DNA of 64,000 nucleotides, taken from the NCBI GenBank assembly GCA_964187785.1, contig OZ076409.1, positions 69,008,001 through 69,072,000 on the forward strand. Reading direction: 5' to 3'. Positions 12,822 to 64,000 of the stretch are shown piece after piece. The position numbers and the translations under genes were made by a program. Source of the DNA: Amphiscolops sp. MND2022 (lineage: Eukaryota). The notes beneath the pieces are model-generated. The model searched no databases, had not been told where the DNA came from, and worked only from the letters and a program-made list of their open reading frames with translations. Position 1 is the stretch's first letter. Each line of letters begins with the position of its first letter.

Positions 12822-13001
12822 TGGGTGACTGGCGAACTTTGTTGATATTTCGTTTATTGATGCTCTTTCTTTTGTGTACTGATTTTATCTGTTGTTGTTT
12901 CTTTGGTTGGCGTTTAGCTTTCTTTTGATTTGTGTAGTTTTAGAAATTTGTAAAATTTAACGTAGTCACTCCGGTTCGGTTTGACGTGCTGATCTTTTAT
13001 T

Positions 13002-16000: not shown

Positions 16001-18229
16001 TGCCAGGCGACGGTAGGCGAACGTCCTACTAGCGAAATTAAAAGCAAGTAACTCTACTGACCTTTGGTCTGCCATTTGAAGGCAGTGATACGCCTGGGAG
16101 CAGTCAAGCTTGCAGAATAGTTTTTTCCCTGCTAGGTGTTGTGCCGCATCTGAGAGGGTGCTGACAGGGTTGTTGTTGTTGATGTAGTCATCTGCTATGA
16201 GTGCGTTGATTTTGCGTAGATCCACCAGCAGTCTCAGCTTGCCGTTGGGTTTCCGTTGTGCAAATATAGGACTGGCGTACTTGGAGAAGGGGAGTGTCGT
16301 GATGATACCGTATCGGTGCATGAGGGCCAGTTCTACAGTCAGATCTTCTTTGAGGTTGATGGGTACGGGTAGGCTTTGCGTGTAGACTGGTTTGTCGTCT
16401 TGTGGTGTTAGGCTGACTTTGAATTGTGTGTTCATTCCTATGTCTAGCCGGTGTCGAGCGAAGATGTCATTAAATTCGACAATGGTGTCCTCAAGGTTTT
16501 CACGGTCTTTGCCCGCAATTAGTGAATCTGTCCATTTGAACATGGATAGGAATTTGTTGCGGGATTCTTCGCTTTCGGTTGGGTCGAGTTTTTCTAGTTC
16601 GGCAAGGTCTTGCAATTCTTTCAAGATTCGCTTTTGTATGGGCGAATGTTCCTGTTCGTTGCCGGGGTGTTCTGGGGTCGGAAACCAGAATTTCTCTTCA
16701 TTGTCGTCGGGCCGCTCTACTTGCATTAGTGCATTGATGTACGTGACCACATCGTCATGGTCAGTGAGGAGGTTTAGGGCGGCTATGTCAACTGGGCGGA
16801 TCATCTTCGTTTCTTCGGGCTTCAGGATTTGCAGTTCTGCCATTTTGGTATTGGTGGCTATTGTGTATGGAAAATCCGTAGTGTTGGCGATTTTAATTGG
16901 TATCTTTTTGTCTCTGGCTGTGGTAATCGCTGGAGCTACTATTACCTTCGCGCATTCATCGAATTGTGGTAGGGGTTGTATAGTGCCCGTTATTGGGTGT
17001 TCAATACTCACAGGGATTGTTGCGTAGATGACTCGGGTAGAGTGCGCTGGGATTGTATGCTTGGCTTCGGTCTTTATCGTGATGGGTTTGGGATTGCACT
17101 TTTGTCTTTCGTCTGTGAGCGCCATCGTGATTTGGATCTTAGGAAAGTCGATGGTTCCCTGTTCCGTGTCAAGGATTGCGGCATGCTTACGTAGAAACGC
17201 TAATCCGATTATGGGGAATGACGTTTGATTCATGATGATGAATGTTTCTTCGAAGGTGTAGTCTCCTATTTTGAAGCGTAGAGTGTACGTGGCAAGTGGT
17301 TGTTCTAGTTCGGCATTGGCGTACTGCACTTTGAAAGGGGGTGGAGGTGCTTTGTTAACAATGCATTGACTCGCATTTTGGTGGAGTTTTTCAGCATCCC
17401 TTTCGCTAATAGCATTAATGTACGCACCTGAGTCGACTAAGGCTTCGATTTTGACAGTGTTGAATTCGATTGGTAGGAAGAGCATTCTCTTTTTCTTCTT
17501 GAGGGCAATTGCAGACATTAACGGGATGTAGTCGTCTTCCTTGTCGTGCTGGATGAATTCTTTGATGACATCTAGATCTTCTGGTAGTGTTGGGTGACAT
17601 TCCGTTATTTCTTCGTCTTCAGCGGCTATTGCTGTGGCTGGCGCGGTTTGTGGTGATGACGAGAGCGAAGCGGTGTTTTCTCGCTGTTCTCTTGCTTGTC
17701 GTGACCATATTGTTTTGTCTTCAATGCATATGATGGTTTCGGCATCGATCGGTGTGGACGTGATGGTGACGGGTGCTGTTGGGGACGGTGTTGTTCTTTT
17801 CAGGATCGGTGACGGCGGTGATGGTAGGTTTGTGATCTTCGTAGCTTGAGCTTGAGGGTTTGAGACTTGGATTTTGAAGGATAGTTTATTTGTATCATAG
17901 ATGGTTGGTTCATCCCAAGGGTCACATCTGTAGTCTCTGTCATATATATAAATTCGGTCTGTTTTTGATTCCGGCAACGGTCTTTTGAGTGTCGCATAGT
18001 TATCAGGCGACTCTGTTATCCACTGGGGTAGTGGCGTTGGATCTTCTGGGTGTCTGGCGTTATGCCTGAGTATCGTGCCTACGTTCCAACGGCGTTGCCA
18101 GTCTTGAGTTGGTTCTTCATTACATTCGGTTAAAAAATCTTCCTCATACCTGTTTGGGGGGTCCTCTATCGTGTACGCCCTCGCGTCTACTTTTTCCCCA
18201 AATCGTAGGCGCGGCGACTTTAGTTTTTT
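13002..18229 (-). CDS. pol: Pol (PR, RT, RNase H, integrase) of element B; one frameshift near 15865
   Basis: LVDSGA, QYVDD, TDAS, HHCC and DDE integrase motifs. The -1 frame is open from A AAA AAC (18223-18229). ORFs 15821-17977 and 13002-15626 join if one A is added to an A5 run. Confidence 0.95.
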
Positions 18230-19629
18230 GGCTGAGAGGACGTGGTAGGTACAGGTTGTTCACTGATTTTGTTGGTTGGAATGGTGAATTCTCGTTTCTT
18301 CTTTCTGGGGTCATTTGCTGCATTGGCTCCGTTCCAACAATTCTCAGTTTTGTGCATCTTGCCGCATGTATCACACTTGGGTTTGGGTGCTTCGTTTTGG
18401 GCTGGGTCTTTTGTGGTTGTTTTGGCGACATTGTAACGCTCTCGTTGGAGTCTGCGACACTGTGCTTTATAGTGGCCATATTTGCCACAGTGAAAGCAGT
18501 GACCTCGTTGTTGTTGGTCTTTTTTATCGTCCGTCACTACGGCGTCCACTGTGTTGAGTGGGACTAGGGTTGTTTCGTCGGGCGCACCTAGTCCGTTTAA
18601 TCGCATTTCTCTCTCAAGATGCAAAACTATGTCATTGTAGGGTTTATCTTCTAAATATGCTCTATTGAGGATCTTCTCGACGTGATCCGGCATTTTGGCG
18701 TAGATCGCTTCATCAATGAATCTTTGTGCTTCTGAGCCGAATGCTTCTTTTGCAGTTTTTTGCAGAGTGTCAAGGAACTCATGGAGTTTCTGTTTAGTGG
18801 GGTCAAAATGCAGTGCGTCCCACTCACATCTCGCTTTAGCGGATGATTGGAAATCACCAAAGCGGCGTTTAAATGCCGTTATGACTTCTTCTAGGTTGTC
18901 TTTTTTGGTGTCATCTAGATTACAATACGCTTGTAGCGCGTTTCCTCGTAGGAGTGAATGGAAGTAGTTGATCTTTTGTATCTCGGTTAGGTGAGGATAC
19001 ATTTTGATATTGTTTCGGAATAGGTCCTCAAAAAGTTCAAACTTTTCGGACTTACTATCGAAAACTGGGAGCGAAGCAGTGAGTGCTTTCGGCATCGGAA
19101 GTAGATTGGTTGATGGTAATGTGTGTGGTTGTGGCGCGAACAGGATCTTTGATGTGGAGGGACGGGCTTTTTGTTGTTCGTTGAGTATACGTTGTGTTTT
19201 CGGTCTATTGGTGGGTTGGTTGGTGGAATCATTGAGGACTCCTGTCACCATGTTACGACTATTGTTCGGTGTTGTTTTAGAACTAGTCGCAGTTTGTGTT
19301 TTGACTGGGGTGGACGTTCTCGCTACGGAGATGTTTTCTTGGTCTGAATCAGAATCATGTATGTCCGAACTGACTGGGCGTTTCTTGCTCACAGGTGCTA
19401 TTAATTTGAGCATTTCCTTTTGATTTTCGGCGAGTATTTTCGTCAAGTCAGACATAATCTCTTTTCTCAGAGACGTTTTTATTTCCTCTAAGTTTTCAAG
19501 CTCGAGTCTAGGATTTTTACTGGAGCTAGCTATTAAGTTCTCAGTAGAGTTGTTCTCAGCTAAGGAAGCTTCAAAATCACCTGACACCAGCTCAGCTACA
19601 GCTTTTCTCTTCTGGCTCCTTGTTGTCAT
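18220..19629 (-). CDS. gag: Gag, 469 aa, two CCHC knuckles
   Basis: FDSKSEKFELFEDLF; CFHCGKYGHYKAQC; CDTCGKMHKTENC. Confidence 0.94.
   Translation of the reverse strand: MTTRSQKRKAVAELVSGDFEASLAENNSTENLIASSSKNPRLELENLEEIKTSLRKEIMSDLTKILAENQKEMLKLIAPVSKKRPVSSDIHDSDSDQENISVARTSTPVKTQTATSSKTTPNNSRNMVTGVLNDSTNQPTNRPKTQRILNEQQKARPSTSKILFAPQPHTLPSTNLLPMPKALTASLPVFDSKSEKFELFEDLFRNNIKMYPHLTEIQKINYFHSLLRGNALQAYCNLDDTKKDNLEEVITAFKRRFGDFQSSAKARCEWDALHFDPTKQKLHEFLDTLQKTAKEAFGSEAQRFIDEAIYAKMPDHVEKILNRAYLEDKPYNDIVLHLEREMRLNGLGAPDETTLVPLNTVDAVVTDDKKDQQQRGHCFHCGKYGHYKAQCRRLQRERYNVAKTTTKDPAQNEAPKPKCDTCGKMHKTENCWNGANAANDPRKKKREFTIPTNKISEQPVPTTSSQPKN
19238..19250 (-). promoter_or_regulatory. Primer binding site of element B
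   Basis: TGGTGACAGGAGT starts immediately where LTR-LTR identity ends. Confidence 0.9.
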
Positions 19630-21452
19630 TTTTCAAAGTTGAGATATCAAAGTCTTTGGCAAGAATTAAATTCTTCAAAGAAATTTTGAGTTTACGCAAT
19701 TACAACGAGCAACAAAGTTTTGAAACGAATTCAAGATCAACTAAAATTACATGTCCTTTCTACATATTTATACCTTTTCAGCATCATTTGTTCCTCACCT
19801 AAAAATTCCTAGGAATCTTAAAAATCAGGTTTGTTCAACAAAAAGCGTCAATGATTCAGATTATTTCAGCCCGGCGTCATAAAATCAGGTATTGCAATTC
19901 CTACACACGTCATCGCTCCGTTAATCTTTGTTGAAAACGTTTTTGTTCAAGCATTTACATTTCCTGTTTAAACTTCAAAATTGCGGCAAAACAAATGTCT
20001 AGCTTTCATATTCATCGACGCAGGCACGCCGGCGTGATCAATTAGTCAGCTTCCTAACTTGAAAATTGAAATTCGGAGTAAAAAGAATGACACTCAAAAA
20101 ATGGTGACGGAAATATGACGGAAGTAAATATTTTAGAACCAGGAACATTTGAGAGATCAAAATGAAGAACAAAATGATGCCGAGAAGCCTTTCGAAAACG
20201 GATTGTCTATAGGATGGCAAATACTACAACTTTTACATACATCAGAACATAGAACGAAACATTTAACCTTTTAGCAACAGCTGAATACCACGGAAGTGGT
20301 CCGTTTGCCGAAACTTGTTTAGCAGTTAGCACACAAAGTGTTCAGACTAAAAGTCTAAGAAAACGTATAAAAATACAACATCATAGCACCCGCATGAGGA
20401 CTGGGCAAGAATAGAAAAGGAATAGGAGAGATTATTGGAATGATTATTACTGCATCATATCAAAGCTTATACAAAACTCAAAGCAACGCGAGTATTACGT
20501 TCATTTCATAATTCTTCCTCACAGTACAACTATTCTTTATGTAAACTTAATCCTAAAATTTCTTATAGTGCATCGATTCATGAAAAACTCTTCTGCGGTT
20601 CCATTCGTTTCAATATTTCTTAGTCACAATTTTACAATTTGCTCCGTAGTAGCTCCGTATGTATTAAGATTGCTTATAGCTGTAATTTGCTCCGTAGTAG
20701 CTCCGTATGTATTAAGATTGCTTATGGCTCAGCTGCCGGACCAAGTGGAGAGAAAGCGGAGCGCGTAGGTGAATTCATTTTCTTTCTCTTATTCTAATTG
20801 GCGTTGCTAGGGGCAACCGAGTTTAATTTTACTCGCACTAGCTAAGAATAGTTCTATTAATAGGGTGACGTTATTGGTCCGTAAAAGCAAAATACCTAAT
20901 ATTAGCTCAGTAGATTGACGTTGCCATAACGTTGTAAATATTTGCTTAGGTCACTTGATTGTGCTTTAAACGAGTATTCACAACTACTTCATCACCGGAA
21001 AACAATTTTATCCTTTTGTCTATGTGTTCTTTTCATTTTAGATCGTATGAATTCCGTTGGGATCTCGGAATTGAATTTTATTTTAATGTTTTCATTTTAG
21101 TGTGGACCAGAGGAAAAGAATGATCCCAATTAGAAATGTTCATTTTAGTGTTTACATTAGTATGGCCGAAATCAGAAAATCATACCGGAAATGAAAAATC
21201 TTATCACGCATGGAGCTGAATAACCGGAAGTTTTAGCTAAAAGCCATTTCTGAAAATATTCCGTAATGCTTACGTTAGGTCTTGTTTTGGGAAATTATCT
21301 ACGAGTGAATTTAGCTGTACTGTAAGTAGAATTTTGATTTGGTTAGCTTAACAAAGTTTAAAAGTATTTACTGTGTCCTTGTCCATGTCCTCTGCCGAAT
21401 CCCGGTATTCCGGAGCAGCAAGTAAAATTACGACCGGGAGCGGGTCGTGACA
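19251..21452 (-). repeat. 5' LTR of element B
   Basis: Direct repeat of 5262-7463; TATAAATA about 140 nt upstream of the gag ATG. Confidence 0.97.
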
Positions 21453-22595: not shown

Positions 22596-24103
22596 TGTGA
22601 GAACTCTGACCCAGGGTCTCTCTTAGATCTCCTACAGATCGTGAATCCTTCTTTGCAATTTTTATTTTAGGCCCAGATGCGCTTTCCCTGTTTTCCTGGC
22701 TATTCGGGGACGAACTGGCCTCAGTGTCCCTGTGCCCAGCAGAGGACATGGAACTAGCAATGTTTTGGATCTCTGGAATGACTCTTTCGTTTATAGCTGC
22801 TGTGACAGCTCTATTTATTTGATTATGCATCATTGACATCATAGAATCCATTTCTTGAGATAATCTGAGATTAAACTCATTCGAGAAGGTTTCAAAAGAG
22901 TGTCTGATTTCATTCTGTCTCAGTACATCATTTTCATGCTGATAATCTCTATATTCATTCTCTAGGTACGTGTGTGTATCAGCGTCCCCATGGGCCGATG
23001 ACTGATCTATAGCTTCAGCTAATTCTCTTTCTATGGGATTATTATTGCTATTTCCCAGCATCACATCTAAGTTTTCAAAGTCGGACATCATGTCCATTTC
23101 CCTAGATTTCCTAGCTTTCGCTTTTTGACGTCTAGTAGAAGGCATAAGAGATTGTTGCAAGAGGTAAGAATTTAAATTAAGTTCTCAGACTTGCAAATTC
23201 AGTGTGAGATTACTCAGTATCAAGTAACAAGCATGTAGTAAGGTCAAACTTCTTGTGTCTCGGGACTAAATGTCTCCGCTATATATATATAACAAACTAC
23301 ATGACACGCATAATATTGATCATCATTTTCTAATAATAGCCTTAAGGGCTTCTAAAAATAGCAACAGTTCTAAATATAGCAACGGTTAACTAGTGACATC
23401 ATCATAGATTAAAGGGCCTTTCCCGACAGTTATTGTGGCGGGAAGACTGAAGGTCCATGCGGACAAGCAACAACATACATGTATGAACGCAATAAACTAC
23501 ATGTATTTCAACATTTTCTAATTTGCATGAAATATATTAAAGGCATTGATGGCGTACTATTAAGCACAGATTACATGTCCTCTAAGGACTAATAATTCAC
23601 TAAATAAGACAGTAAAGCACCGGTTATTATGTAATTCATAGCACTTTCCAGTAAGCGCCTTTAATTCCAAAACGGCCTCAGCGTCCAATCGACATGAGTG
23701 GACCGAGATATTATTGACTGGCGGCATATGGCCACTCAGTCCCTTTAATCTAGCAGCATAATACAGCACCGAATAAAGAAAGTACTGCACTGTGATTGGC
23801 TAGCGAGTTAATTGGACCGGTGGACCAAGGCGACAGGCGAGAAAACATTTGAACGCGTTTCCTCTACCTGTACGCCTTGGTGTCCAATTTATTAGCAACG
23901 TACAAATTAGCGCCGGTATTACATAACATCAAATCATCACTACATGATATTTTATATTCAGAATAAATAAATTACATGACTTTTAAGATACAAATGCAGT
24001 TCATTTAAAAAGTTTCCATTTAAATGGATCGTGTTGGGTAGGGCTTTTTGATAGTTGTGGCAAATAGAATACAAGTTGCCATCACAGGCGGACGCCTGGG
24101 ACA
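22596..24103 (-). repeat. 3' LTR of element C (~1508 bp)
   Basis: Left end is set by the repeat with 36545. Right end is set by PPT AGGGGGAG abutting TGTCCCAGGC and by homology to the start of LTR A (TGTCGCAGGC). Confidence 0.85.
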
Positions 24104-24851
24104 CTCCCCCTGGGATTAGCATGAAGCAGCCCACCTTCATTCCTTCTAAGAACGCTAGTCTTCTGGCATTGAATTGTTCTGGGGACTCCCCTCGGACAGC
24201 CGTCTTGTGCATGTAGTCAATCACTGCTTCATCTTGAATCTGTTCTACAGATTTTCCGCAGATGAGGCAGTCTGTACAGCCCGTGATGTAGGGATTGTCG
24301 TCGCTAGGGCCTTTGAAGTGTATTCCACTAGGGCATTGTTGCTTGTTACTAGTAGAGGGTTCTACCATTGCCCTCCAGTCGCCTGTAGGGTATTTATCCA
24401 CAGCAGGGGGCGACATTGGCGTGTCCACCATTGGAATTAATTGGCTGCAAATATTAATCGGATGATCGTTTTTGAGCCTTGGGTCCCTTGCGACTGGCCC
24501 TCTCCCCATTCCTAGATCAAAGTATCCAGCATCGAACATTGGTCCAGGGGTGTACGAGAGCCTGATGGTCCCGGAGCGATCTTCTCCCTGCTGGTTTGAA
24601 CAGGAGGGCACCGGAATAATTTCTGAGGCTAATGGGAGTTCCATTTGTCTTTCTACGCATTCCGCCAGTAAAGCCACTTCATCATCATCGGATAGAGATT
24701 CTAGGTCGTCTACTGAAGCTCTGCTCACACATTCCATTTCATCATCACTGGATATGCAAATTATTCCGTCTCCCGGGGCTGCGCCCAGAAAGTCTTCAGG
24801 GAAGTACTCGGGGGACTCTGAGTCGAAATGGCTTGATAGGAATTTGTCCAT
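23958..24851 (-). CDS. ORF3 of element C, 297 aa, unknown function (SIM-like IICISSDDE, CxxCxxC); stop lies inside the 3' LTR
   Basis: Intact ORF; its tail VSQASACDG is conserved as (V)SQAAACDG at the start of LTR A. Confidence 0.78.
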   Translation of the reverse strand: MDKFLSSHFDSESPEYFPEDFLGAAPGDGIICISSDDEMECVSRASVDDLESLSDDDEVALLAECVERQMELPLASEIIPVPSCSNQQGEDRSGTIRLSYTPGPMFDAGYFDLGMGRGPVARDPRLKNDHPINICSQLIPMVDTPMSPPAVDKYPTGDWRAMVEPSTSNKQQCPSGIHFKGPSDDNPYITGCTDCLICGKSVEQIQDEAVIDYMHKTAVRGESPEQFNARRLAFLEGMKVGCFMLIPGGVSQASACDGNLYSICHNYQKALPNTIHLNGNFLNELHLYLKSHVIYLF

Positions 24852-26133: not shown

Positions 26134-29100
26134 ATGTCGTCCGAAGAGCACAATGAAATCGTCCCCGCTACCGCTACTGGGACTTTAACAGAAGAAGAAG
26201 TTCCACAACAGCCTGAAGAAACAGTCGTTGACCAGACCGCCACTGCCATAAAGGACGCGGAGTCCAACCAGCCTGATCCGCCAAAAGACAGCTCAGCTAG
26301 GATTGATCCAACTCCCAGCCCTTCCACCGATGAGAGTATCACTGCGTACATTGAGCGTCAGTTGCAGACTCTAGGTTGTCAAGGCACTGGACTGGACATC
26401 TCTTTCTTGCCTCCTACCACATCTGCCATCGTAGGCAATGTGCTAAAGCCAACCGCTGAGAAAGCTTCTGAGTCGGAGCCAATTCCCCAGGTCACGACTG
26501 GGTCACAAGACAAGGAGTCTCCTGAGACTGAGATTGAGCGGGGCAATGATGCTGTCAGTGAAGCTGGATTTTCCGTCACCAAGGCGGATTACTTCCAAAC
26601 AGATACCAGCGACGCTGAAGAACTGCTTGATAGTTCAGGTGCTGAGACCGTCAAGGAACCTCCGTTCTTGATCGCACTTAATGCGCTAAGCTCCGCTGGG
26701 ACCGAAACCCATGAGAATGCTAGGCCATTAACTTCGGCTGAGTTACCAAGCACATCTTCCCCGAAGCTCTTCAGTCCCACCAGGCCTCTATCTGCCTCTG
26801 CTCGAACGCTCATAAATCAGCATTTCAATGAGACCAATCCGTGCATCCTTCCGGTAGGCCATGCGACTGTAGCCTTCAATCAGGGGCAAGTCCATTCCAT
26901 CTTGCGTGCCGTCTCCACCGAAACCATTACTTCTTCCCTACACCAGATGAAGAACATGTTGGAAGAAGCGATCCGGGTGGGAATTCGCTCCCAAGGTACT
27001 CCTCAAGGATCCGGGAAGCAGCGAATCAAGATCTTCCGTAAGCAGAGCGGCAGCCTTGGATCAGGTGCGGAAGACAGTGACGTTGGGACTGAGGGGTACA
27101 CTAGCGGAGCCCTCAGTTCGGAAGATGAGTTTGTCATCAATTCGCAAAGAACTGGCAAGGATCTGAGCATCAATCCCCCTCCAAGTCCTCCAGATCAAAG
27201 TTCGACTTCAACACCTGGACCATCATCTGCACAACAAGTCCCTAGTCCAGGATTCTGCTCAACCGACTATGAGCCCTTAGCCACGTTGACCACTGACCAA
27301 GCTTCTGCCTCAAGTCCACCTCGCAAACGTCGTCGGCTACCTGGACGCACAGGCAAAATAATGAAAGAGGCCTATTTCAAAGGAATTCAGTGGACTCGCA
27401 CATTCGTCACCGGCCCCCTCGACCCAGAGCACAATAAACATAAGTTCTACTGCCAAATATGCAAGACGAACGTTTCCATTTTTTCAAAAGGAGCTCGGGA
27501 GATAGTCCGCCATTTCCAGTGTGAGTCGCATTTCCGCAAAGATCAGCGCTGGAGATACGAACACCTAAGGAAGAAAGACAAAGTGACAGGCCGGATTGTG
27601 CACGAAGTCAGAGGGAAGAAGGGCCAATTGCTGACTCCCTTAGAGCTTGAGAAAGAGAAGCCCTTCTTCATGCAAGTTCCCTTGGTTGAAACTGGCAGCA
27701 GCAACCCCTTCTACGAGGATCATATGGCTGGCCTGGGCTCCATCGCTGGGCAGGAGGAGATCAGACTGTGCGTCCAAATCTCTATGGTTGCTCTCTTCGC
27801 TCCTCGTTGTGGAGATCTAAACATCCTTGAGTCGTTATGGTCACAGATTGGCACTGTAACCAACCATCAGAGTCTGTTCTCTCCTTACGATTGGGGCTCC
27901 TCCAAACTGACAGTAAGTATTGGCGATTTCTAGCCTCAGGGTCCTTTAGCCCTAACGTAGCCTCGATTCATTTTCATCCTGGTTAATTTTGTTTTAGACG
28001 ATCTTTCATCACATCTTCCTCTGTGGCATCGCTGACATCGCGTACCAAGTCAGTGTCACGGGTCAGTACTCTCTGGAGTTTGAAATGCGAGGCACTTACA
28101 GCTTTGTCTCGATCCGATTCTGGAAGGGCGAATCCCTCAATGTCGTTCGTTTGCTACGATACCGGACTGCTTCAGAGCCTGCTGCTGGTTTCCTGTTGGT
28201 ACTTTCCCGCCTCTTGTCCGTCCTATCAACACAACCTCAGATTGTGAGCGTGTCTGGGTGTCCTGCAGAGGTGATCCCTCTTCTTGAACGTTCTTGCCTC
28301 TTCCAAAAAGGGATTGAGTACCCTTTTCGATTTGATGCACTTTGTCTGCCGGACCTGATGCACGAACGATGGGGCAGCGTGTTTGGCACCATCAGTTTCT
28401 TCTCCCAGCTGAAGTTTCTGGTTACATTCTTGGACGGTTGCGGTGGACAGCCATGGGCCGCCCTAATGCCAGAATTCGTTAAGGTAAGGTCACTGTCCGT
28501 AAGACTGTAGGTCCAGCTTTGAATTGCCTCCAATGAACATGTTGATTGTAGGCGATGTCTACCTATCACTTGGAAATTGCCGCTGTACCAGCCATATGTT
28601 CGGAGCTGATTGCGAACTGGAAGTCTGTGCACCAGCATTTGACGAAGATTGCCCCACCCCAGGTCCACCAGGGGGTCAAAAGCAAGCCCCAAAGCCTCGA
28701 GTGGGAAATCATTGCTGATGATTTCTTCACCATCAAGCTGGAGTTCTTCGCACGAATTGTCCGCGATTGTTAGTATATTGGTTTTTTCTCCTGTCCACGG
28801 ACCTCATGGTCTCAGTTTCTCTTACCACTACTTGAGGCTCATGCGAGATATAGTAGATTGACACGTTAGGTCTAATGGTGTCATAGTGACACTTCAGGAT
28901 GGTAATGTTTTGTTTTCCAGACACCAAGAGCTTCGAGAGTCAGTTTGCGCAGCGAAGGGATAGTGACTTCTACACCTTCCGAGAGTTCCATACTTTCATC
29001 CGCAAGTTGGCAGGTCGAGCACTACTTCCCAGACACGTGCCTGATATACTGGACTGGAAGTCGCTGGGCGATTTGCAAGGACAGAATTGGCGACAACTGT

Positions 29101-30071
29101 CTAATCGAGATTTCTTGAGTCGCTTGAAGCTCAAAGAAAATCTGGATGCCGCATGCCATGCTCGCGTCAAGAGAATTTATAGTGAGAAGCAACTGACACC
29201 TGAAGAGACGGAAACAGAAGCTGAGGCCATTCGGGACGATTTCGCCACCAAGGCCCGAGGTTACCTCGTCCATCTTTTGAAAGTCTTCCTTGCCGACATT
29301 AGCCTGAATGCTGGTATCGTTAGAGGCCTGGGCAGTTTCGATCCAGTAGCCCTCCTGAGTCTGCCGCTTGAGCAAGCCACATATTGTTTCTCCGCTCTGT
29401 ACCGCTCCTTTAGTTTGCGAGGCTGGTTAGAGAATTCCCCAGAGGCCGATGCCCGAGACGAGTACGTCGATTTCGTGGAGTACTTCCGTCAAGCCAACTC
29501 TGGAGTCAAGGATACCCCAGAGGTCTTCACCGACATGGTAGCCTTTCTGACTGGTATGCCTGAATTGAAGTTGCGGAAACATCTGTTCTACATCTTCCAA
29601 TTGAGTTGTCTGTGCCTGACTTCTAAGTTGCCAGAGCTCCCAGACATCAAATTCCCTGGAGTCGATTGCAGTGATCCCCGAAGTAGACTTTTCGATGTCA
29701 TCATGCCTGCACAGTCTTACCTAGCTAATGTGGCAAATTCGGTGGCTGTGTGCACTACAGAAGCTTCCTTGGGTACATTCAAAGATCTGGAATTCCGATT
29801 CAGTATTGGCAACGTCCCAGGAGACCCTTGGTCACACGTAGACAGTTTCGGCAAAGCTAATCTGCATAAAACCTTAATCGCAGTCTACAAAGCTCTGGGC
29901 AAGAGTGTCCGTCCTGACATCGAGTCCGCTTCCAATTCCTCGTCCAAAGAAGGGGGGAAACAACGTAAGCTGTCCCCGGGTAAAGGCAAGAAAGTTGGCT
30001 TTCGGGTAGCTAGTGAAACTGAAGCCGCAAAATCCAGTGATGTGAACGCTCCCGGAACTTCTAAATCTTAA
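26134..30071 (+). CDS. Antisense spliced accessory gene of element C, ~1210 aa, BED-like finger, hAT-transposase-like; exons 26134-27912, 27998-28483, 28552-28768, 28921-30071
   Basis: Three GT-AG introns (GTAAGT, GTAAGG, GTTAGT donors) give a stop-free 3633-nt frame. Acceptor at 26131 precedes the ATG; AATAAA near 30214 and 30274. Homologous to the B gene. Confidence 0.85.
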
Positions 30072-30306
30072 ATGTACAAAGAGTACATTTGTTTCTAGAC
30101 TGTACTTGTTGTAAACTGCTTTATATTTATTTCATCATTTTGTTGTTTTGTTTGGGCGTGGCTTTGTATTATTCGCCACTAAGTCTTCTTTATTGTACAT
30201 AATTAGTTCGAGTAATAAAGTAAGTCAGAAAGTCCCAAGTAAAAAATGAATGTCCTCATGGACCAATAGTCAAAATAAAGAGGGGACTAGTAATTCAAAT
30301 TTCTGG

Positions 30307-33300
30307 CTAGTATCTGTATTCATCAGTAAAGTTGGGGTTGGGGTTAGGTCGAAGGTTATATCTCCCTCCTCTAGGGCTAGAGTTTTCTAAAAAACTTTCT
30401 TTTTCCGATATTCCGGGCACGGTAATATCTGCGCCTCTGTTTGAAACGCTTTCCGTATTTTTGAAATCATTAGTGACGTCATTTTGATTGTCGTCCTCAT
30501 ATGGCGTTTCGTTCAGCGGGGACGATTCGTCACTGTTGTTCTTCTTTGTTGGCCATATTTCATTCTCGGTGACGTCATTCTCGTTAATTCGTTCGGAGCA
30601 GCTTTCATTTTCGCTCGCGCTGCTGCGTTCATTTTCAATGACGTAATGATCCGCACTGCCATCCTCAGTGTCGGTCGGCCGGCGTGTGGCCACGTCGGTC
30701 CAATCTTCCTTTCTCGGTTCGAATAAGTCGTACTCAAAATCCACTTCCCATGAGATGGAATACAAGTCGTCTTGTGGTATTACTATCTCATTGTCGGGCT
30801 GTAATTTTTCACCTTCATATTTGTCCTCTAAGGGGGCATTTGGTACGAATTTCTTTAATCTAATGCGATGTAGTATTTGCGTTTTATTTGTATTTAATCG
30901 ACGCACAATATAATTGTCATTGGACAGTACTGTCTGAACGACAGAGGGGCCAATCCACCTGTATTCCCTGAATGGGATCTTTGATGCTTGACTGTCCGCT
31001 TTAGGTTGTAGAATAAAACAATAATCGTTTTCTTTAAGCGGAGCCGCTTTGGCCTTTCGGTCGTAGTAGTCCTTATACTTTAGGTAGGACTGCATTATAT
31101 TCTTTTTGGTCTGATCAATGAGGATTTGTGTCCGCTGTTGCACTTCTTCCGCAAAGTCTGTAGTTGGCATGAAATTTTTATTGGGATTGTTCCCCAATTT
31201 GTGATCTAGGACGTTAAAAGGAATTCGGCCATGAAAGACTTTACTCGGTTCACATCCAATACTGGAGTGATATGTGGTATTATAGTTGAGTACTGCTAAT
31301 GGCAGGTATTTATGCCATTGGCGTCGATACTCTCCTGAGGCCATTTTCAAATTGGTTTTGAGTGAGGCATGCGTCCTTTCCAGCTTGCCAATTGTTTGCG
31401 GGTGCTTTGTAGTTGCGCATTTGAGTGTTATGCCCAAAATTTGAGTTATCTCAGCTATGATGGTCGATGTAAATGCGGACCCCTTGTCTGTGATGAGGGT
31501 TGTTGGCAAATATGAATGTTTCGTCATTATGTCAATTATCACCTTGGCTACATTCGTGGCTGTTGCCTCAATTAGCGGGTAGGCGAATAGGTATCTTGAA
31601 AATATATCAATAGCCGTCATCACTGTCTGGTATCCTCCACTAGTCGGTAGATTTGGTAGTAAGTCGATCTGCATGGCATCTTCGGGACCTAGGTCCCACT
31701 CGGGCAAATTTAACAATTCAGGCGTGATTGTATTGTTAGGGACTCTTTTGTCTCTGGCACACGTCTCACAGCCTTCTACCCATTTTTTAACATGTTTGGC
31801 TATCCCAGGGTAGTAGTATTTTTGGCGAATTTCTTGTAACATTTTGGATATGCCCGGGTGTTTATGGGCCGTGCCATGTATTGCTTGCAGTAATTCTTTT
31901 AACAAGTGTTTGGGCAGTAATATCTGGTGGTGTTTAATTTAGCCTGTTTCGTCATAGTACTTCCTTGTGACAATTTCGTCTTTGAGGACTATTCGGTCTA
32001 GATTGTTCAAATAATGTCTATACCTGATGTCCTGTTGGAGGATCTCCTCAGAGTATTCTTCATTCTGAATTTTTGCCTTTAATTGAAGTAATATCGGGTC
32101 TTTGGATTGCTCTAGCAGTATTTGATTAGTTCTACGGAGCTTCTGGGTGAAATTAGTAATTTCTTCGACGATATTTTCGGATATGGCATCAATTTGGATG
32201 ACAGTCTCCGGGACTTTGAGTCCTGCTTTTGATTGTCGTTTTCGTTCCCAGATTTGTTCTTCCGTTTCATTATCTTCCTCAGTAAAGAACACTTGTTCCT
32301 CTTCGGACACACCGGCCGACTGCACGTTGACTTCAATAGGCCGTGTTTCAACGTCTGCGCGAATTTTCAAAACTAACTTTTCGGTCGGTTCCATTTCCAA
32401 ACGGGACAAATAGTCTGCCGCTGTATTATTCTTGCCTGGAATGTGGGCTATTATAAAGTTGAACTGGATGACGAAATCACAGGCATTCCATAATGGCGGC
32501 GGTATGATCTTGGTCTGGAAGAACCTTGTGACCGATTTGTTGTCTGTAAGGATAATTACCGGTTTAGGTGTCCCCCAGAATATATGTCCGAATTCTTTAA
32601 ATGCGTAATATATAGCGAGAAATTCTTTCGCATATATCAACATTTTGAGTTGGGAAGGAATAAAAGTTTTCGAACCATAAGCAATAGGTGCATAGGATTT
32701 CTTGACTGAGGTGAATTTTTGGTTTGGATCGTCTTCAGTGAGTATAGCGTATCCTGCTGCTGTAAAACTGGCATCTGTCATCAGGACTAGCTGTCGATTC
32801 GGCAGTGGTTGCCTCAAGGCTAATTGGCTACACCGGTCCAGGTCTCTATTGATTTCGTTGAATTGTTCGATTAGCTCTGATGTGACTAAGACCTTCTCGT
32901 CCTTCTTAAGTAGTTGAAAGAAGGGAGCCAATTTTTCTGATAGTCTCGGTATGTAGTTTCTGTAATAATTGAGAAAACCGAGATATCTTTGCAAGGCTTT
33001 TTTGGATTTCGGAAATTTAGTTTTTTCTAGGAAGTTTGTGATACTTTCCTTTTGAGGTTTGACGCCCTCTGGGGTGATTGTTCTTCCCAGAAAGTCAATT
33101 TCTGTTGCGCCAAAATGACATTTGTGCATTGTGAGTTTTAATCCAGCCTCTCTTTTGCATTCAAATGTTGCTCGGAGGTTTTTGATCAAATGTTCGGCAT
33201 CATTTGCTGCTATGCCAATGTCGTCGACGTATTGCGCACATTGGTCCGCCTTGATAACGCGGTCCAAGTATTCCCTCATGAAGCTAGAGAAGGCCGACAG

Positions 33301-35415
33301 GGCTCTACTGAGTCCTTGGGCCAATCGTCTGTAAGCGAAAGTTCTGCTGGCAACGTTGAAGGCCAGCATTTCAATAGACCTTTGGTCTGCCATTTGGAGG
33401 CAGTGGTACGCCTGTGAGCAATCAAGTTTGCAAAAAAGTCTCTTCCCGGCCATGTGTTGCGCAGCGTCCGTCAAGGTACTAACTGGGTGGTTGTTATTAA
33501 TATAATCATCAGAAATCAAATTATTGATCTTCCTGAGGTCTACTAATAATCGTAGCTTCCCGTTAGGCTTCTTTTGCGCGAAAATAGGACTGGCATATTT
33601 TGAGAACGGTAAAGTAGTTATAATACCGTATTTGTGAAGTAATGCCAGCTCAACTAGGATATCCTCTTTTAAATTTATTGGAGTCGGTAAGCTCTGGCTG
33701 TATGCGGGTGAGTCGTCCTTCGGGGTCAGTTTGACAGTGAACTCCTCGTGCATCCCAATATCAAATCTATGACGTGCAAATATGTCATGAAATTCCACTA
33801 AGAGAGCTTCTATTTGTTTGATTTCATGCTGTTGTAGCATTGAGTCTTTCCAATCAAAATTACTGAGGAATTTTTGCCGAGATTCTTCATTTTCTTGAGG
33901 ATTGAGGCTTTCTGCTTCTTGCAAATTTCGCAATTCTCTGAGTATTCGTTTTTGTATTGGCGTGTGGGACGCTTCGTCCCCCGGGTTCTCAGGAGTTGGG
34001 AACCAATATTGTTCATATTGGTCGTTATTCCTGTTGGCTTTCAGAAGGCTGCTGATATATTGAACAGCATCTTCTTCATTTTCATTGAGGAGGTGCCATG
34101 TGGACACCGGGTCTATTGGCCTGACGTGTTTCATCTGCTCTGGCGTCATTACTGAGAAGTTGGCTATATGCATCCCCTTTTTGAGTTTGTAGGGTTGGTC
34201 AGTAAAATTATTAATGTGTATCCTCGTGGTCCCTTCATCGAGTGTAATTATGGCAGCGCAGAAGGTTATATCATTTTCTTCATTTAGATGTTCACTGGGC
34301 TGTAAAATCCCAGTGACAGCATTTTCTGCGTAAATTCTGGATTGAATGGAGATGATTGTACGGTCATTTGGTGGAATTGTGACATCCTCGGGATTGAGGA
34401 TGGGCTCCATGACGTTCGAGTACTTGTGGTCAGCCGTTTTCAATTGCATCGAGAAAAAGGGGAAGTTGAGTATGCCTTGGCGCATATCTAGGACTGTGTG
34501 ATTTCTTTGTAAGAACATAAGTCCAATTATGGGGCTGGATAGTTTTTCCATCACAATGAAGATCTCATGGAACTCAATGTCCCCTACTTCAAATTTCAAT
34601 TCCACTGTGCTTTTGGGAGTCTCTAGGTCACCATTTGCGACCATGATTTGGAAAGATGGGGCAGGTCCCTCTTTGACTATGGATTGAGGCGCTAATAGCC
34701 GTATTTTCCTGAGGTCTGCTTCTGGGATTGCGCTGGAGTGGGCCCCAGTGTCTATGAGTCCATCTAACGTTAGTTCTCCAAAGTCCATTGGAAAATATAA
34801 CATCCGCCTTTTAATTTTAAGTCCAAGATTAGTGGAAAGAGGAACGTATGATGGTTCACCTTGTTGTTCCACTAAAATATGCAAGAAGGCTGTTTCATCC
34901 AGGAGGCTATTGGGGTCTTGGTGATCTTCTTGCTCTGGAGTTTCCCCTATTTCTCTTGAGATTGCTTCAGAATTTGGTTGCCAAAGTTCAATGAGGGCCC
35001 TAGAGAGTTTAGTGTCCTCTATTTGGGGGTCGTCCTCATCGTCTGTTGGGGGATAGTCTTCGTTCCGGAATTGGAGATTTCGTTTGTCATATAATTCATC
35101 ATCCCAATACGGATCTTTGCCATACTCAGCGTCAATGTATTGAGGGTGGTAGTCTTCGACCAATGGTAAGGGACGGAATTGAGTCTCAAAGTCTTTAGTA
35201 TAGTCAGTTTCGTAAAATCGGTCTGGGCGATCGTTGTGTACTTGTTTATAGGTTTTGATGCAGGCTTTCTCCATCTGTTGCTGCCAGACGACGGATGGGG
35301 TGCCTGTGGTATCCTTTATATAGTGTCGGAATGTTATAATTGGAGGGTCTGAAATGACATACTGTCGAACCGACATATAGTCATGTATTTGGAGTCGTGG
35401 CAAAATTAGTTTTTT
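30307..35415 (-). CDS. pol: Pol (PR, RT, RNase H, integrase) of element C; one in-frame stop at 31939-31941
   Basis: LIDTGA, QYVDD, TDAS and integrase motifs. ORFs 31939-35403 and 30307-31905 share a frame. Slippery A AAA AAC at 35409-35415. Confidence 0.95.
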
Positions 35416-37094
35416 GGATCTGGCTTTTTGATATTGGATTGGCTTGAGCTGGTGGTCGTCGTGTCGCCTGATGTTTTAGGTTTGCTTTCTGAAGTTGAGG
35501 CGTTTGGGTCTTTTTGCTCCGCTTGTAACCTCTTGGGACGCAGGTGGGCACCTGCTCCTTGCCAACATTTTTCAGTTGAATGGTTCTTTTTCCCACATGT
35601 GTCACAAGGTGGGTAAGTAGGACGCTGTGGTTTTTTGCCATCTTTTTCCTCCATTTCTTTCTTTTTCTTGAGTTTAGGACAGCTTTTGTAAAAATGTCCG
35701 GTTGCCTTGCAATAGGAGCATTGAGCGTCTTTGTTGGTGTTGATGCCGGTAGAGAGTAAGTTGCTCTGGTTTGTTGACGCCGAGGCCATAGTGGCCATTG
35801 GCAAGTCATCGGACTCTTCTAATGCATTAAGTTCTAGCTCTCTTTCAAGATGAGCGCCTATTTCTTCATACGTCCCGTTCTCCAACCGGGCCATGTTGAC
35901 AGATCGTTTTAATTTTGGTGGAAGTTTCGCATATAACAAACTGTCAATCATGCTTTTTGCATTTTCACCAAAAACCTTTTCAGCTCCTTGGTTCAGTTCT
36001 TCCAAGAAGTCCGGCAATTTCATGGTATTTGGGTCGAACGTCAGTCGATGCCATTTGTGTTTTGCCGTCGCTTGGGATTCCGGTTTAACGTACTTTCTCC
36101 GGAATATGACCAGTACGTCTTCCAGAGTCTGACGGTTGATGGAGTTTATGTTCCTAAATGTCTGTAATGCCCTTTTTCGTAGCAATGAATGGAAATGGTT
36201 GATTTTCATCTGTTCTGTCATTGCAGGTTGCATTTTGATCATCGTGTGGAACAAGTCCTCAAAAAGCTCAAATTTTTCGCTTTTTCCGTCAAACGTCATT
36301 GGAGTTGTTTGGACAGCTCTGATGGTCATAGTTTGTGGTTTATTTTGCAAATTGACTAATACATCAGCTAATCTGTTGAACGGGTCCTGCTGTGGCTCTG
36401 GGACCTCGGGGTCTGGGGCTGGCAGAGTCGCGTCTAGAGAGACATTGTGGTTGGAATGTTGCCTCTGGAGGTTCGGGATTGAGTGGATTCGTCCAGTCAG
36501 GAATTCAGGAATTTGCTGTTGGGTGTCAATGGCTCCTGTCACCATGTGAGAACTCTGACCCAGGGTCTCTCTTAGGTCTCCTACAGATCGTGAATCCTTC
36601 TTTGCAATTTTTATTTTAGGCCCAGATGCGCTTTCCCTATTTTCCTGGCTATTCGGGGACGAACTGGCCTCAGTGTCCCTGTGCCCAGCAGAGGACATGG
36701 AACTAGCAATGTTTTGGATCTCTGGAATGACTCTTTCGTTTATAGCTGCTGTGACAGCTCTATTTATTTGATTATGCATCATTGACATCATAGAATCCAT
36801 TTCTTGAGATAATCTGAGATTAAACTCATTCGAGAAGGTTTCAAAAGAGTGTCTGATTTCATTCTGTCTCAGTACATCATTTTCATGCTGATAATCTCTA
36901 TATTCATTCTCTAGGTACGTGTGTGTATCAGCGTCCCCATGGGCCGATGACTGATCTATAGCTTCAGCTAATTCTCTTTCTATGGGATTATTATTGCTAT
37001 TTCCCAGCATCACATCTAAGTTTTCAAAGTCGGACATCATGTCCATTTCCCTAGATTTCCTAGCTTTTGCTTTTTGACGTCTAGTAGAAGGCAT
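35406..37094 (-). CDS. gag: Gag, ~562 aa (start MPSTRRQK), two CCHC knuckles
   Basis: Highly similar to Gag of element A. The ORF-track extension across the N gap is an artefact. Confidence 0.93.
   Translation of the reverse strand: MPSTRRQKAKARKSREMDMMSDFENLDVMLGNSNNNPIERELAEAIDQSSAHGDADTHTYLENEYRDYQHENDVLRQNEIRHSFETFSNEFNLRLSQEMDSMMSMMHNQINRAVTAAINERVIPEIQNIASSMSSAGHRDTEASSSPNSQENRESASGPKIKIAKKDSRSVGDLRETLGQSSHMVTGAIDTQQQIPEFLTGRIHSIPNLQRQHSNHNVSLDATLPAPDPEVPEPQQDPFNRLADVLVNLQNKPQTMTIRAVQTTPMTFDGKSEKFELFEDLFHTMIKMQPAMTEQMKINHFHSLLRKRALQTFRNINSINRQTLEDVLVIFRRKYVKPESQATAKHKWHRLTFDPNTMKLPDFLEELNQGAEKVFGENAKSMIDSLLYAKLPPKLKRSVNMARLENGTYEEIGAHLERELELNALEESDDLPMATMASASTNQSNLLSTGINTNKDAQCSYCKATGHFYKSCPKLKKKKEMEEKDGKKPQRPTYPPCDTCGKKNHSTEKCWQGAGAHLRPKRLQAEQKDPNASTSESKPKTSGDTTTTSSSQSNIKKPDPKN
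36533..36544 (-). promoter_or_regulatory. Primer binding site of element C
   Basis: TGGTGACAGGAG starts immediately after the LTR repeat ends. Confidence 0.9.
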
Positions 37095-37131
37095 AAGAGA
37101 TTGTTGCAAGAGGTAAGAATTTAAATTAAGT
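36545..37131 (-). repeat. 5' LTR of element C (partial)
   Basis: Matches 22596-23182 up to the gap. Confidence 0.95.
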
Positions 37132-37331
37132 NNNNNNNNNNNNNNNNNNNNNNNNNNNNNNNNNNNNNNNNNNNNNNNNNNNNNNNNNNNNNNNNNNNNN
37201 NNNNNNNNNNNNNNNNNNNNNNNNNNNNNNNNNNNNNNNNNNNNNNNNNNNNNNNNNNNNNNNNNNNNNNNNNNNNNNNNNNNNNNNNNNNNNNNNNNNN
37301 NNNNNNNNNNNNNNNNNNNNNNNNNNNNNNN
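37132..37331. other. Assembly gap (200 N)
   Basis: Run of N. Sequence after the gap does not resume the C LTR. Confidence 0.99.
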
Positions 37332-38987: not shown

Positions 38988-41900
38988 CAACAAAAATAAG
39001 GTCGTCAAAGAATGTTTCGGGGTCCAAGTTATTCCGCTGCTCAGCGGGCGACTCGGTTCTGATGACTAGTTTTATTTTACAAAAAAGGTCATTTCAACTT
39101 TTTCAACGTAACCTAAAGCTAATTGTATAATAATTAGGCTATTTACTAAATTACAGTAAAAACATAGCTCAGATCAATTAAGTCAGGCAGTTTGCTGCTG
39201 GGAAAATTATTCAGGCGCAGCAAATTATAACGGGTGCTCAATAGCCATACGTCAACGCTACTACACTACTACGGATGTGAATAAAGACTTGCTTCATTTT
39301 ACGTCGACGCTACATCAACAGTTTTTTACACTTCGACAATGAATACAATTTAGTGTTGTGGTGGGATGTATGATGGGAAAAAAACTAATGATAGTATTTT
39401 TATTTTCCGCCCTCATATAATGGGGGAGGAAAATCATGATCTTTGAAATGTTTTTTTTTACAATTTTGCCAAATCTCCATCATCTCCATCCACTACTTGA
39501 CTATTTTTCACCTAAAATAGTCAAGTAGTTACTACTGGTAAATTGTGCCAAATCGCCACGATCTCCATCCTTTTTTTGACTATTTTAGTTACTTGACTAT
39601 TTCAGTTACTATCAATCAGTAGGTTTTGGGTTCGAATCTCGCCTCCGCATGGTGTTTTTTGAATAGGCGGAAACATCCCGGTGTTTGGCGGGCCTTTTTC
39701 AATAAAAGGTTTAGAAGGTCACACTTTGGTTCTAAAAATGTTGAATCGTAAAATTTTGCCGTATACAAGATCTAAACAGTTGTTTCCACTGTACTAAATT
39801 ACGAATCACAAAATTTACACCCAATGTGCACCAAGGTGCTATTTGTGCACTAAAGTTGAACGGATGAATAATGAATAATCGTTTCAAAACACACTTTCCT
39901 TAATTTTGGGGGTTTTGTTTTAGGACAATACCACTTTCCTTGTAAAAGCGAGTAATTCATGTCGACACGCTCCTGGGTGTGAGAATTAGTTAGAGGCTCG
40001 CGGAGCGTTTCCTTTCTGGTCGAGAGATTACTTGTTGTGTTAAGGTCGCTAGTAGAGTTCTAATCTCATTCATTTCGGTTTGTAATTTATTGATTTTGTG
40101 AATCCTTTCTGCTTGCGAAGTTGAATTTCTTTCATCACGATGACTTTCAACAAAATAAGGTCGTCAAAGAATGTTTCGGAGTCCAAGTTAATCCGCTGCT
40201 CAGCGGGCCACTCGGTTCTGATGATTAGATTTTTACAAGAGAATGTCATTTCACCTTTTTCAACGTAACCGAAAGCTAATTGTTAATATAATTAGGCTAT
40301 TTACTAAACTACAGTAAAAATATAGCTCATATCAATCAAGTCAGGCAGTTTGCTGCTGGGAAAATTATTCAGGCGCAGCGAATTATAAAGGGTGCTCAAT
40401 GGCCATACGTCAACACTACTACACTACTTCTGATGTAAATAAGGACCTGCTTCATTTTACGTGGACGCTACATCAACAGTTTTTTACACTTCGACAATGA
40501 GTACAATTTAATGTTGTTGTGGGATGTATGACGGGAAAAGAAACCAATGATAGTATTTTTGTTTTCCGCCCACAAGTAATGTTGGAGGAAAATCATGATC
40601 TGTGATGCTTTTTTTTCACAAGTTTGCCAAATCTCCATCATCTCCATCCACTACTTGACTATTTTTTACCTAAAAAAGTCGAGTAGTTACTACTGGTAAT
40701 TTGTGCGCCAAGATCTCCATCCACTACTTGACTTTTTTAGTTACTTGACTGTTTCAGTTACTATCAATCACTAGATTTTGGGCTCGAATCCCGCCTCCAT
40801 TTGATGTTTTTTGATTAGGCGGAAAACATCCCGGTGTTTAGCGGGCGTCTTGTATCTTTTCTTCTTTTTTCAAAACAAGGTTTAGAAGGTCACACTTTGG
40901 TTCTAAAAATGTTGAATCGTAGAATTTTGCCGTATACAAGATCTAAACAGTTGTTTCCCTTGTACTAAATTACGAATTACAAAATTTACACCCAATGTGT
41001 ACCGGTGTTTTTTGTGCACTAAAGTTGAACGGATGGGTAATGAATAATCGTTTCAAAACACAGTTTCCTTAATTTTGATTGTTTGATTTTGTTTTATGAT
41101 AATTCCACTTTTCTAGTAAAAGCGAGTATTTCCTGTCGACACGCTCCTGGATGCGAGAATTAGTTAGAGGCTCGCGGAGCGTTTCCTTCATGTGGTCGAG
41201 AGATTACTTGTTGTGTTAAGGTCGCTAGTAGGGTTCTAATATTCATTTCGGTTTGTAATTTATTGATTTTATGATTCAATTCTGCTTGCGAAGATGAATT
41301 TCTTTCATCGCGATGACTTTCAACAAAAATATGGTCGTCAAAGAATGTTTCGCGGTCCAAGTTATTCCGCTGTTCAGCGGGCGACTCGGTTCTGATGATT
41401 AGTTTTTTTACAAGAAAATGTCATTTTAACTTTTTCAACGTAACCGAAAGCTTTGTTATTAAAATTAGGCTATTTACTAAACTACAGTAAAAATATAACT
41501 CAGATCAATCAAGTCAGGCAGTTTGCTACTGGGAAAATTAATCAGGCGCAGCGAATTATAACGGGGGCTCAACGGCCATACGTAAACACTACTACAATAC
41601 TACTGATGTAAATAAGGACCTGCTTCATTTTACGTCGACGCTACATCAACAGTTTTTTACAATTCGACAATGAATACAATTTGGTGTTGTTGTGGGATGT
41701 ATGATGGGAAAAGAAACCAATGATAGCATTTTTGTTTTCCGCCCACAAATAATGTTGGAGGAAAATCATGATCTGTGATGCTTTTTTTTTCACAAGTTTG
41801 CCAAATCTCCATCATCTCCATCCACTACTTGACTATTTTTTACCTAGAAAAGTCGAGTAGTTACTACTGGTAAATTGTGCGCCAAGATCTCTATCCACTA

Positions 41901-63984: not shown

Positions 63985-64000
63985 GAAGGGTTCAGCAACT

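Follow-up and report, generated by a model that had tools for sequence, protein, structure and literature searches.

Antisense accessory open reading frames (ORFs) are a known kind of gene in long terminal repeat (LTR) elements. The plant Ty3/gypsy elements Retand, Grande, and RIRE2 (Retand/Tat-type) carry antisense ORFs between pol and the 3′ LTR, most of them with a TRP28 domain, and the accessible parts of the literature give their origin and role as unknown (PMC11963269, PMC7264820). HBZ of human T-lymphotropic virus 1 (HTLV-1) and APH-2 of HTLV-2 are described there as nuclear regulators encoded antisense within an LTR element (PMC11963269). LTR retrotransposons of bdelloids carry an extra ORF3 (env, DEDDy, GDSL), according to the accessible text (PMC5408684), and the Mutator-like VANDAL DNA transposons encode VANC, which the part available to us presents as a captured, fast-evolving anti-silencing factor (PMC13547354). 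Here, we describe an intron-containing antisense gene, very probably derived from a hAT transposase, that is carried by three related Ty3/gypsy elements (A, B, and C; all on the minus strand) in a 64,000-nt stretch of the 1.07-Gb genome of Amphiscolops sp. MND2022 (G000:C1:69008001-69072000; hereafter the window).

This gene is real, selected, and widespread. Like the plant ORFs, it is antisense, located between pol and the 3′ LTR, and found lineage-wide; the product of the plant ORFs has been proposed to be a nuclear DNA-binding regulator in the passages available (PMC11963269, PMC7264820). Unlike in the plant elements, no TRP28 (PF04195) match was obtained here and a hAT fold can be recognized. 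Several spliceosomal introns are present, while the word "intron" does not occur in the accessible texts on the plant ORFs, and allele cassettes are exchanged, which the passages on these ORFs do not describe; TRP28 is presented there as limited to flowering plants (PMC11963269, PMC7264820). With the bdelloid elements, our elements share a captured non-env accessory ORF in an animal LTR element, and the words "intron," "transposase," and "opposite" are absent from the accessible text of that paper (PMC5408684). Likewise, "antisense" and "transposase" are absent from the accessible text of a survey of envelope-carrying animal elements (PMC13524379). Like VANC (PMC13547354), the product is proposed to be an accessory chromatin factor that the element encodes, that evolves fast, and that was acquired from elsewhere, but element class and fold differ, and the alleles described below do not co-segregate with the LTR. 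What is unusual in the Amphiscolops gene is its probable class II origin, its introns with losses inside the element, and its multi-allelic exchangeable cassette. HBZ is a spliced gene for a small bZIP protein, whereas the gene described here encodes a putative transposase derivative of 1,070–1,230 aa and has up to seven introns. We found no hAT-derived, intron-containing antisense gene of an LTR element in the literature, in a search that most subscription papers and repeat databases lay outside.

The gene of element C is located between integrase and the 3′ LTR. A first-pass annotation, prepared from the sequence of the window without database searches, had proposed an antisense frame of four exons and ~1210 aa in C. 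This structure holds: exons 26134–27912, 27998–28483, 28552–28768, and 28921–30071 join without an internal stop, and the introns of 85, 68, and 152 nt all have GT..AG ends. Exons of C, B, and A served as queries to fetch further copies from the genome, and 35 loci of 10 kb (labels such as L062 or L066 denote these fetched copies) were spliced-aligned and combined with the two window copies, which gave 37 rows. Five other fetched 10-kb stretches, which had no gene core, were left out of this alignment. The loci were hand-chosen from best-hit lists, favoring open frames and distinct types, so that counts of intact copies and of alleles are not genome frequencies. The parts of the gene, and its counterparts in B and A, are as follows.

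26080 (or 26134)–27912, plus strand: C exon 1, with ~400 aa of Ser/Thr/Glu/Pro-rich low-complexity sequence, a basic PRKRRR stretch, a BED-like C2H2 finger, and a helical region
27445–27531, plus strand: C zinc finger C-x2-C ... H-x5-H, with C440, C443, H460, and H466 (1210-aa model) kept in 36, 36, 37, and 36 of the 37 rows
27913–27997, plus strand: C intron i1, phase 0, in the same column in 37/37 rows
27998–28483, plus strand: C exon 2, with the RNase H-like core, the start of the helical insertion, the invariant W746, and no conserved Asp
28484–28551, plus strand: C intron i2, phase 0, in the A and C lineages only
28552–28768, plus strand: C exon 3, without the intron i3 found in B and most A-lineage copies
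28769–28920, plus strand: C intron i4, phase 1, in the same column in 37/37 rows
28921–30071, plus strand: C exon 4, with the remaining helical insertion, the C-terminal hAT-like region, a basic low-complexity tail, and the stop
30214–30219, plus strand: AATAAA, a possible polyadenylation signal (A[AT]TAAA occurs ≤300 nt past the stop in only 8/35 loci)
8843–12821, plus strand: antisense gene of B, 8 exons, 1066 aa, no stop
L062:1561-5716, left of the window: antisense gene of A, with one in-frame stop

The translation of C probably starts at the in-frame ATG 26080 (1228 aa), 54 nt upstream of the previously annotated start at 26134, because a conserved peptide, MD[SF]F.GS.P..FISF.L, opens the frame in all eight A/C-lineage copies (of 26) that are open that far. 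The stretch at 26080 also resembles a splice acceptor, and an upstream exon is possible. The PRKRRR stretch resembles a nuclear localization signal (NLS), and the helical region of exon 1 may correspond to the DNA-binding/dimer domain that hATs have in this place. In Pfam, the finger gave a C2H2 match below threshold only (E 0.00077).

The antisense genes of C and B are homologous after splicing (BLASTP E 9e-35, 21% identity over 658 columns). Their local alignment score was 328, compared to 40.6 ± 4.7 (maximum 57) for 200 shuffles, and unspliced single exons also matched each other, with no splicing assumed (E 8e-9, 4e-13, and 3e-9). The collinear motifs from which the homology had first been proposed are present in the sequences, and the phase-0 and phase-1 introns said to be equivalent fall in the same alignment columns. 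When the spliced aligner was given only the protein of the other element, the core introns were recovered whichever protein was used, and one additional call was made close to the end of B. A homologue suspected in element A was found to the left of the window. It has all four core introns, and the view that the other introns are lineage-specific was wrong for i2 and i3, which are shared with A. The gene is apparently spliced, judging from conservation.

Because the spliced aligner demands GT/AG ends, the evidence for the introns is their shared position with free length. Introns i1 and i4 are in the same column and phase in 37/37 rows. Intron i2 is in the exact column in 22/37 rows and shifted in 4, and the 11 B-lineage rows all lack it; either A/C gained it or B lost it. 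Intron i3 is present in 26/37 rows and absent in 6 C rows and 5 A-lineage rows. These five rows form a nested group whose sister rows retain i3, so that at least one loss of i3 took place within the element, and probably two, the number that a midpoint root gives. The proposed gain or loss of introns inside a retroelement is therefore supported by the tree for the loss of i3, with i2 left as a gain or a loss. Intron lengths range from 68 to 230 nt and are a multiple of three in 33/116 cases, with no bias toward 3n.

The gene is antisense to reverse transcriptase (RT) and integrase in 37/37 rows, which were picked by the gene and not by pol. The primer site of the clade together with the LTR start occurs at 7,449 sites genome-wide (control 1). 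Exact matches to gene motifs numbered 2,040 for A/C (control 0) and 565 for B (control 12), 2,605 together. In the first 15.1 Mb of C1, 30/38 motif sites had a primer site 8–10.5 kb away in the expected orientation, and 0/38 had one in the opposite orientation. Gene copies are present on all large contigs. The family probably reaches another host as well, since P0054, a relative of exon 4, has a best match of just 29–31% identity in this genome. An exon-4 profile matched 1,277 cluster representatives at E 0.001, and the members read in 10 of these clusters were all without a name. Metagenome contigs gave 159 pattern matches, none of which was confirmed.

The antisense gene is under purifying selection. 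The ratio of nonsynonymous to synonymous divergence (dN/dS) was estimated by a simple counting method on the gene core, for within-lineage pairs from 24 of the 35 loci. It was 0.05–0.22 in the 28/97 pairs with measurable dS. In the other 69/97 pairs, synonymous sites were saturated and dN was 0.15–0.44. These values bear out the description of the gene as an old, selected module. In the last exon, the coding frame contains on average 0.1 stops per 900 nt, compared to 9–19 in the other five frames (33 loci). This number of stops rules out conservation through coding on the opposite strand.

The gene was further supposed to be co-inherited with the retrotransposon clade. This is true of the three deep lineages (B, C, and A), which are the same in the gene and pol trees (calculated without L071 and L077, whose RT is incomplete), but within lineages the gene has been exchanged between pol backbones. 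The tree length is 10.5 for the gene vs 1.7 for pol. For example, L066 and L067 are 99% identical in pol at the aa level (dS 0.03) and 58% identical in the gene, where dS is saturated; sliding identity is 50–65% in the gene and >95% directly after its stop. A gene-tree group fixed beforehand (L112, window B, L064, and L065) was rejected on the pol tree by the approximately unbiased (AU) test (p-AU 3.8e-44), and gene distance was not correlated with pol synonymous distance (Spearman –0.01 and 0.14). The rows, 37 in all, sort into 19 allele groups when the cut-off is 80% identity. Conservation is highest in the finger among A-lineage alleles (82%, against 60–64% in later domains) and, less clearly, among B alleles (63%, against 51–59%). 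Old alleles have thus been swapped as blocks between recently homogenized backbones, and suppressed recombination within the diverged cassettes explains the blocks. Because old alleles have long persisted with open frames, frequency-dependent selection is suggested.

TGACGTCA palindromes are located 5′ of the antisense gene in the B lineage (6/7 copies) and within the integrase tail in A/C (5/6 copies; window positions 8533–8548; 30474 and 30570).

The origin of the protein was approached through structure prediction. The model of the B exon homologous to C exon 2 (predicted local distance difference test [pLDDT] 72) consists of a helix, three strands, a helix, a strand, and a helix. In Foldseek, ranks 1–11 for this model were all Hermes (best E 1.4e-3, probability 0.98). 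VIA-align placed its residues 1–111 on Hermes 151–266 (Z 5.8, root-mean-square deviation [rmsd] 3.9) and residues 1–195 on Hermes 152–351 (Z 5.5, rmsd 11.7); the Z scores were tied with those of actin/Hsp70-type folds, and the Hermes alignments were the longest. The model of the last exon (pLDDT 72) aligned to Hermes 365–603 at rank 5 (Z 5.0, 157 residues, rmsd 6.0), the longest alignment among 50 rows, with 41–82 residues in the others. Two separately predicted parts therefore match consecutive Hermes ranges in the correct order, and an RNase H-like core that is split by a large helical insertion, as in hATs, is recognizable at modest scores. In the ESM Atlas, the rows with a family for the finger-plus-core region were of FAM200/ZBED5/DUF4371 hAT types (scores 0.75–0.77), which we treat only as a lead. 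BFVD gave no match at E 0.001, none of 6,003 and 7,999 candidates scored in a weak search for longer annotated full-length relatives, and a DUF4371 search of the genome, which was uninformative, had no match anywhere. Like the hAT transposases (Hermes; DUF4371/FAM200/ZBED5/THAP12-like), the predicted protein has a putative C2H2 finger, a helical domain, an RNase H-like core with a helical insertion, and a conserved Trp (for the Hermes residues, see the accessible part of PMC6027215). Taken together, a hAT transposase origin of the gene is very probable on the basis of these models.

The residues described as essential in Hermes are D180, D248, R318, W319, and E572 (accessible part of PMC6027215). 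At the first catalytic site, the 37 rows have Glu (30/37) or Gln (6/37), and two Glu residues on the first strand are kept in 30/37 and 31/37 rows. No acid is found at the second site, and none is conserved at the third. W746 is present in 36/37 rows, within the range aligned to Hermes 152–351, and is probably the counterpart of W319. The residue before it is Asp, Glu, or Pro, and the conserved Arg of the R318 position is absent. Trp is thus the only one of the five essential Hermes residues with a clear counterpart. Given a hAT origin, the loss of catalysis is highly probable from this comparison, and the protein is most likely a hAT scaffold without a catalytic center, outside the active family, i.e., a catalytically dead derivative of a hAT transposase. 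Besides the absence of the Asp-Asp-Glu (DDE) triad and of the Arg before Trp, the gene differs from hAT transposases in giving no Pfam hAT match, in having no terminal inverted repeats among the longest pairs listed, and, from these transposases and their domesticated derivatives alike, in residing in a retrotransposon and not in a DNA transposon or at a fixed locus of the host. The CxxH motif, which we take to be characteristic of hATs, is absent from the protein.

These observations could be explained as follows. The ancestor of the Ty3/gypsy clade would have taken up the gene of a hAT DNA transposon, reversed, between integrase and the 3′ LTR. From what is known of retrotransposon biology, its introns would persist because the gene is antisense to the genomic RNA: antisense introns would not be spliced from this RNA and would survive reverse transcription. 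A promoter of its own would provide a separate spliced mRNA. In the protein, the BED-like finger, the RNase H-like core, and the helical insertion of the hAT architecture would have been retained and the DDE triad lost. Its long disordered N-terminus, basic NLS-like stretches, and finger would suit nuclear binding to DNA or chromatin, and it may aid the element in trans, with anti-silencing or transactivation keeping the copies transcribed. Together with its upstream region, the gene is a cassette that recombination moves between near-identical elements, and the many old alleles would persist most simply through rare-allele advantage. For the statement as a whole, that of a non-catalytic nuclear DNA/chromatin-binding accessory factor of hAT origin that keeps the elements transcribed, we consider the chances evenly balanced. 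Somewhat more tentative is a broader formulation, in which a class II enzyme was domesticated by a class I element. The large Ty3/gypsy clade would keep the dead transposase as a standing accessory gene, at least 19 old alleles of which are held in balance and shuffled among near-identical backbones; the cassette would serve the retrotransposon population as a specificity or counter-defense locus and have relatives in at least one other host.

Several results weigh against this explanation. All structural matches stayed short of a firm threshold (E was > 0.001 in Foldseek, and the VIA Z scores were < 6 and level with those of actin/Hsp70-type folds), the long structural alignments have rmsd values of 6–12, Foldseek found no match for exon 4, and the ESM Atlas returned RabGAP-TBC clusters below 0.9 for exon 4, which we took as noise. 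Alignment ranges and secondary structure, and not a residue-level superposition, were used to locate the catalytic sites. Comparisons with hATs by sequence and by profile did not reach significance (best P 0.054). Specifically, hhalign against 49 and 54 DUF4371-type hATs gave P 0.41 (no better than block shuffles, with a column setting that was not as intended), 0.054 (in the expected register), 0.17, and 0.16, and the spliced-core profile against the ORFs of 20 hAT loci of this genome gave a best E of 0.064. In Pfam, the gene and 57 of at least 150 relatives gave nothing above the cut-off, including PF05699 and PF14291, and zf-BED was not matched in the 23 members scanned, although the C2H2 ligands are conserved. 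A PDB sequence search with the gene gave nothing significant. The motif sites (2,605) are far fewer than the primer sites (7,449), and to place the gene in every element would exceed the evidence. Only 16/35 cores are free of stops and frameshifts, in a sample biased to open frames. Finally, L067 and L072 share LTRs at 93–98% identity, and their alleles are just 57% identical. A VANC-like factor would bind family-specific motifs and relieve silencing in trans. Alleles that do not travel with the LTR are a poor fit to a VANC-like, allele-specific LTR target, and this keeps other explanations alive.

The best surviving of these, although unlikely, is an integration tether, in which the dead transposase would attach to certain host DNA or chromatin and guide the integrase there, and different alleles would claim different genomic niches, so that many persist on one pol backbone. 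hAT proteins are DNA-capture machines, the gene adjoins integrase, and the independence of the alleles from both LTR and pol is expected for a target outside the element. Against this stand the finger, which is the least variable part among A alleles, the nearly identical integrase across alleles, with no allele-specific partnership visible, and the presence of copies on all large contigs. Self-restriction or incompatibility is unlikely too. Here, the protein or the antisense RNA would repress elements with the same cassette, as a form of copy-number control that a rare cassette escapes. This would account for the deep allele diversity on homogenized backbones and for the movement of the block with its own upstream region; moreover, an antisense RNA would be complementary to the genomic RNA, and regulation by double-stranded RNA has been raised for plant antisense ORFs in the accessible text of PMC7264820. 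The clade is nevertheless present at ~7,400 copies, with more than 100 near-identical copies of single alleles, and a role of the RNA only is ruled out by purifying selection at the protein level.

We consider it improbable that the protein is not derived from a hAT, being instead an unrelated RNase H-fold or host-derived protein, or that it retains nuclease activity through a rearranged active site. The modest structural scores, the null sequence tests, and the two conserved Glu residues of the first strand would fit such a protein. However, two independent models match consecutive parts of Hermes in order, the C2H2 finger and the invariant Trp are in hAT-like places, and the other two catalytic sites are without an acid. 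A passive passenger, i.e., a nested hAT insertion or a transduced host gene without benefit, can hardly be credited: hAT transposons are abundant in the genome (at least 150 matches) and many gene copies are broken, but dN/dS far below 1 across saturated divergence contradicts it, splice sites are kept while intron lengths vary, the five longest of 55 inverted pairs include no bracketing terminal repeats, which with an 8-bp duplication would mark an autonomous nested hAT transposon, and 20 fetched hAT loci are dissimilar to the gene.

If the hAT-derived accessory factor outlined above is correct, a retrotransposon has domesticated the enzyme of a DNA transposon as an accessory protein. The antisense extra ORFs of plants are without known origin or function, and the readable hAT origin here would offer a testable mechanism. 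The elements would also show how introns persist and are lost in a reverse-transcribed element, and they would provide a natural series of alleles on near-identical backbones, from which it could be learned what accessory genes do and why they diversify. With ~7,400 primer sites in 1.07 Gb, the clade would occupy roughly a tenth of the genome if its members are full length (estimated at 14–15 kb each), and the gene may be relevant to the growth of this genome.

The host elements have the hallmarks of Ty3/gypsy retrotransposons, including TG..CA LTRs, a primer site, a polypurine tract, and a short target duplication, and their Pfam domain order (gag, then protease-RT-RNase H-integrase) is that of Ty3. 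Their remaining parts in the window are listed below.

5262–21452, minus strand: element B, complete, with LTRs 5262–7463 and 19251–21452 (2.2 kb, 99.4% identical) and a 5-bp target duplication ATGTT
22596–24103, minus strand: element C 3′ LTR, with TG..CA ends and a polypurine tract just inside
30307–35475, minus strand: element C pol (protease, dUTPase-like, RT, RNase H, and integrase), with one in-frame stop at 31939–31941 in the window copy
35406–37131, minus strand: element C gag, with the primer-binding site at ~36530–36544 and the 5′ LTR from 36545 onward, reaching the N gap 37132–37331
1–4031, minus strand: 5′ part of element A (pol start, gag, and 5′ LTR); the element extends left of the window
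23958–24851, minus strand (sense strand of the element): second extra ORF of C, ~297 aa, ending within the 3′ LTR
7354–8244, minus strand (sense strand of the element): second extra ORF of B, ~300 aa, ending within the 3′ LTR

The 200-base N gap (37132–37331) is within the 5′ LTR of C. The LTR does not resume past the gap, and the target duplication of C is therefore unreadable there; a copy of the C family has the target duplication TCACA. The dUTPase-like segment between protease and RT comprises residues 362–444 of the frame 31942–35475 (minus strand; E 0.00025, just below the Pfam cut-off). The gag frame opens 380–600 nt within the 5′ LTR and crosses the primer-binding site in every copy inspected (A, B, C, and 10 others; window positions 19251–19632, 36545–37030, and 2292–2883), so that the 3′ LTR repeats the gag N-terminus.

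The sense extra ORFs of B and C did not align with each other (E 0.19) and gave no Pfam match, and both contain an acidic I-x-I-S-S-D motif, which presumably resembles a SUMO-interacting motif. Element A has a partial match to the sense extra ORF of C (L061:9723-9965, E 9e-14). In L064 and L173, the start of the locus reappears 13.6 kb further at 99.8% identity, which suggests two head-to-tail elements with a common LTR. Another, unrelated Ty3/gypsy element (58803–63999, minus strand) has an insert between RNase H and integrase with a weak match to the Macro domain (E 0.015, below the cut-off). The window also contains a tandem array at 38988–44842, with about five units of 1.16–1.19 kb, a 29-nt minisatellite at 53923–54094, and a 48-nt doublet in the LTRs of B.

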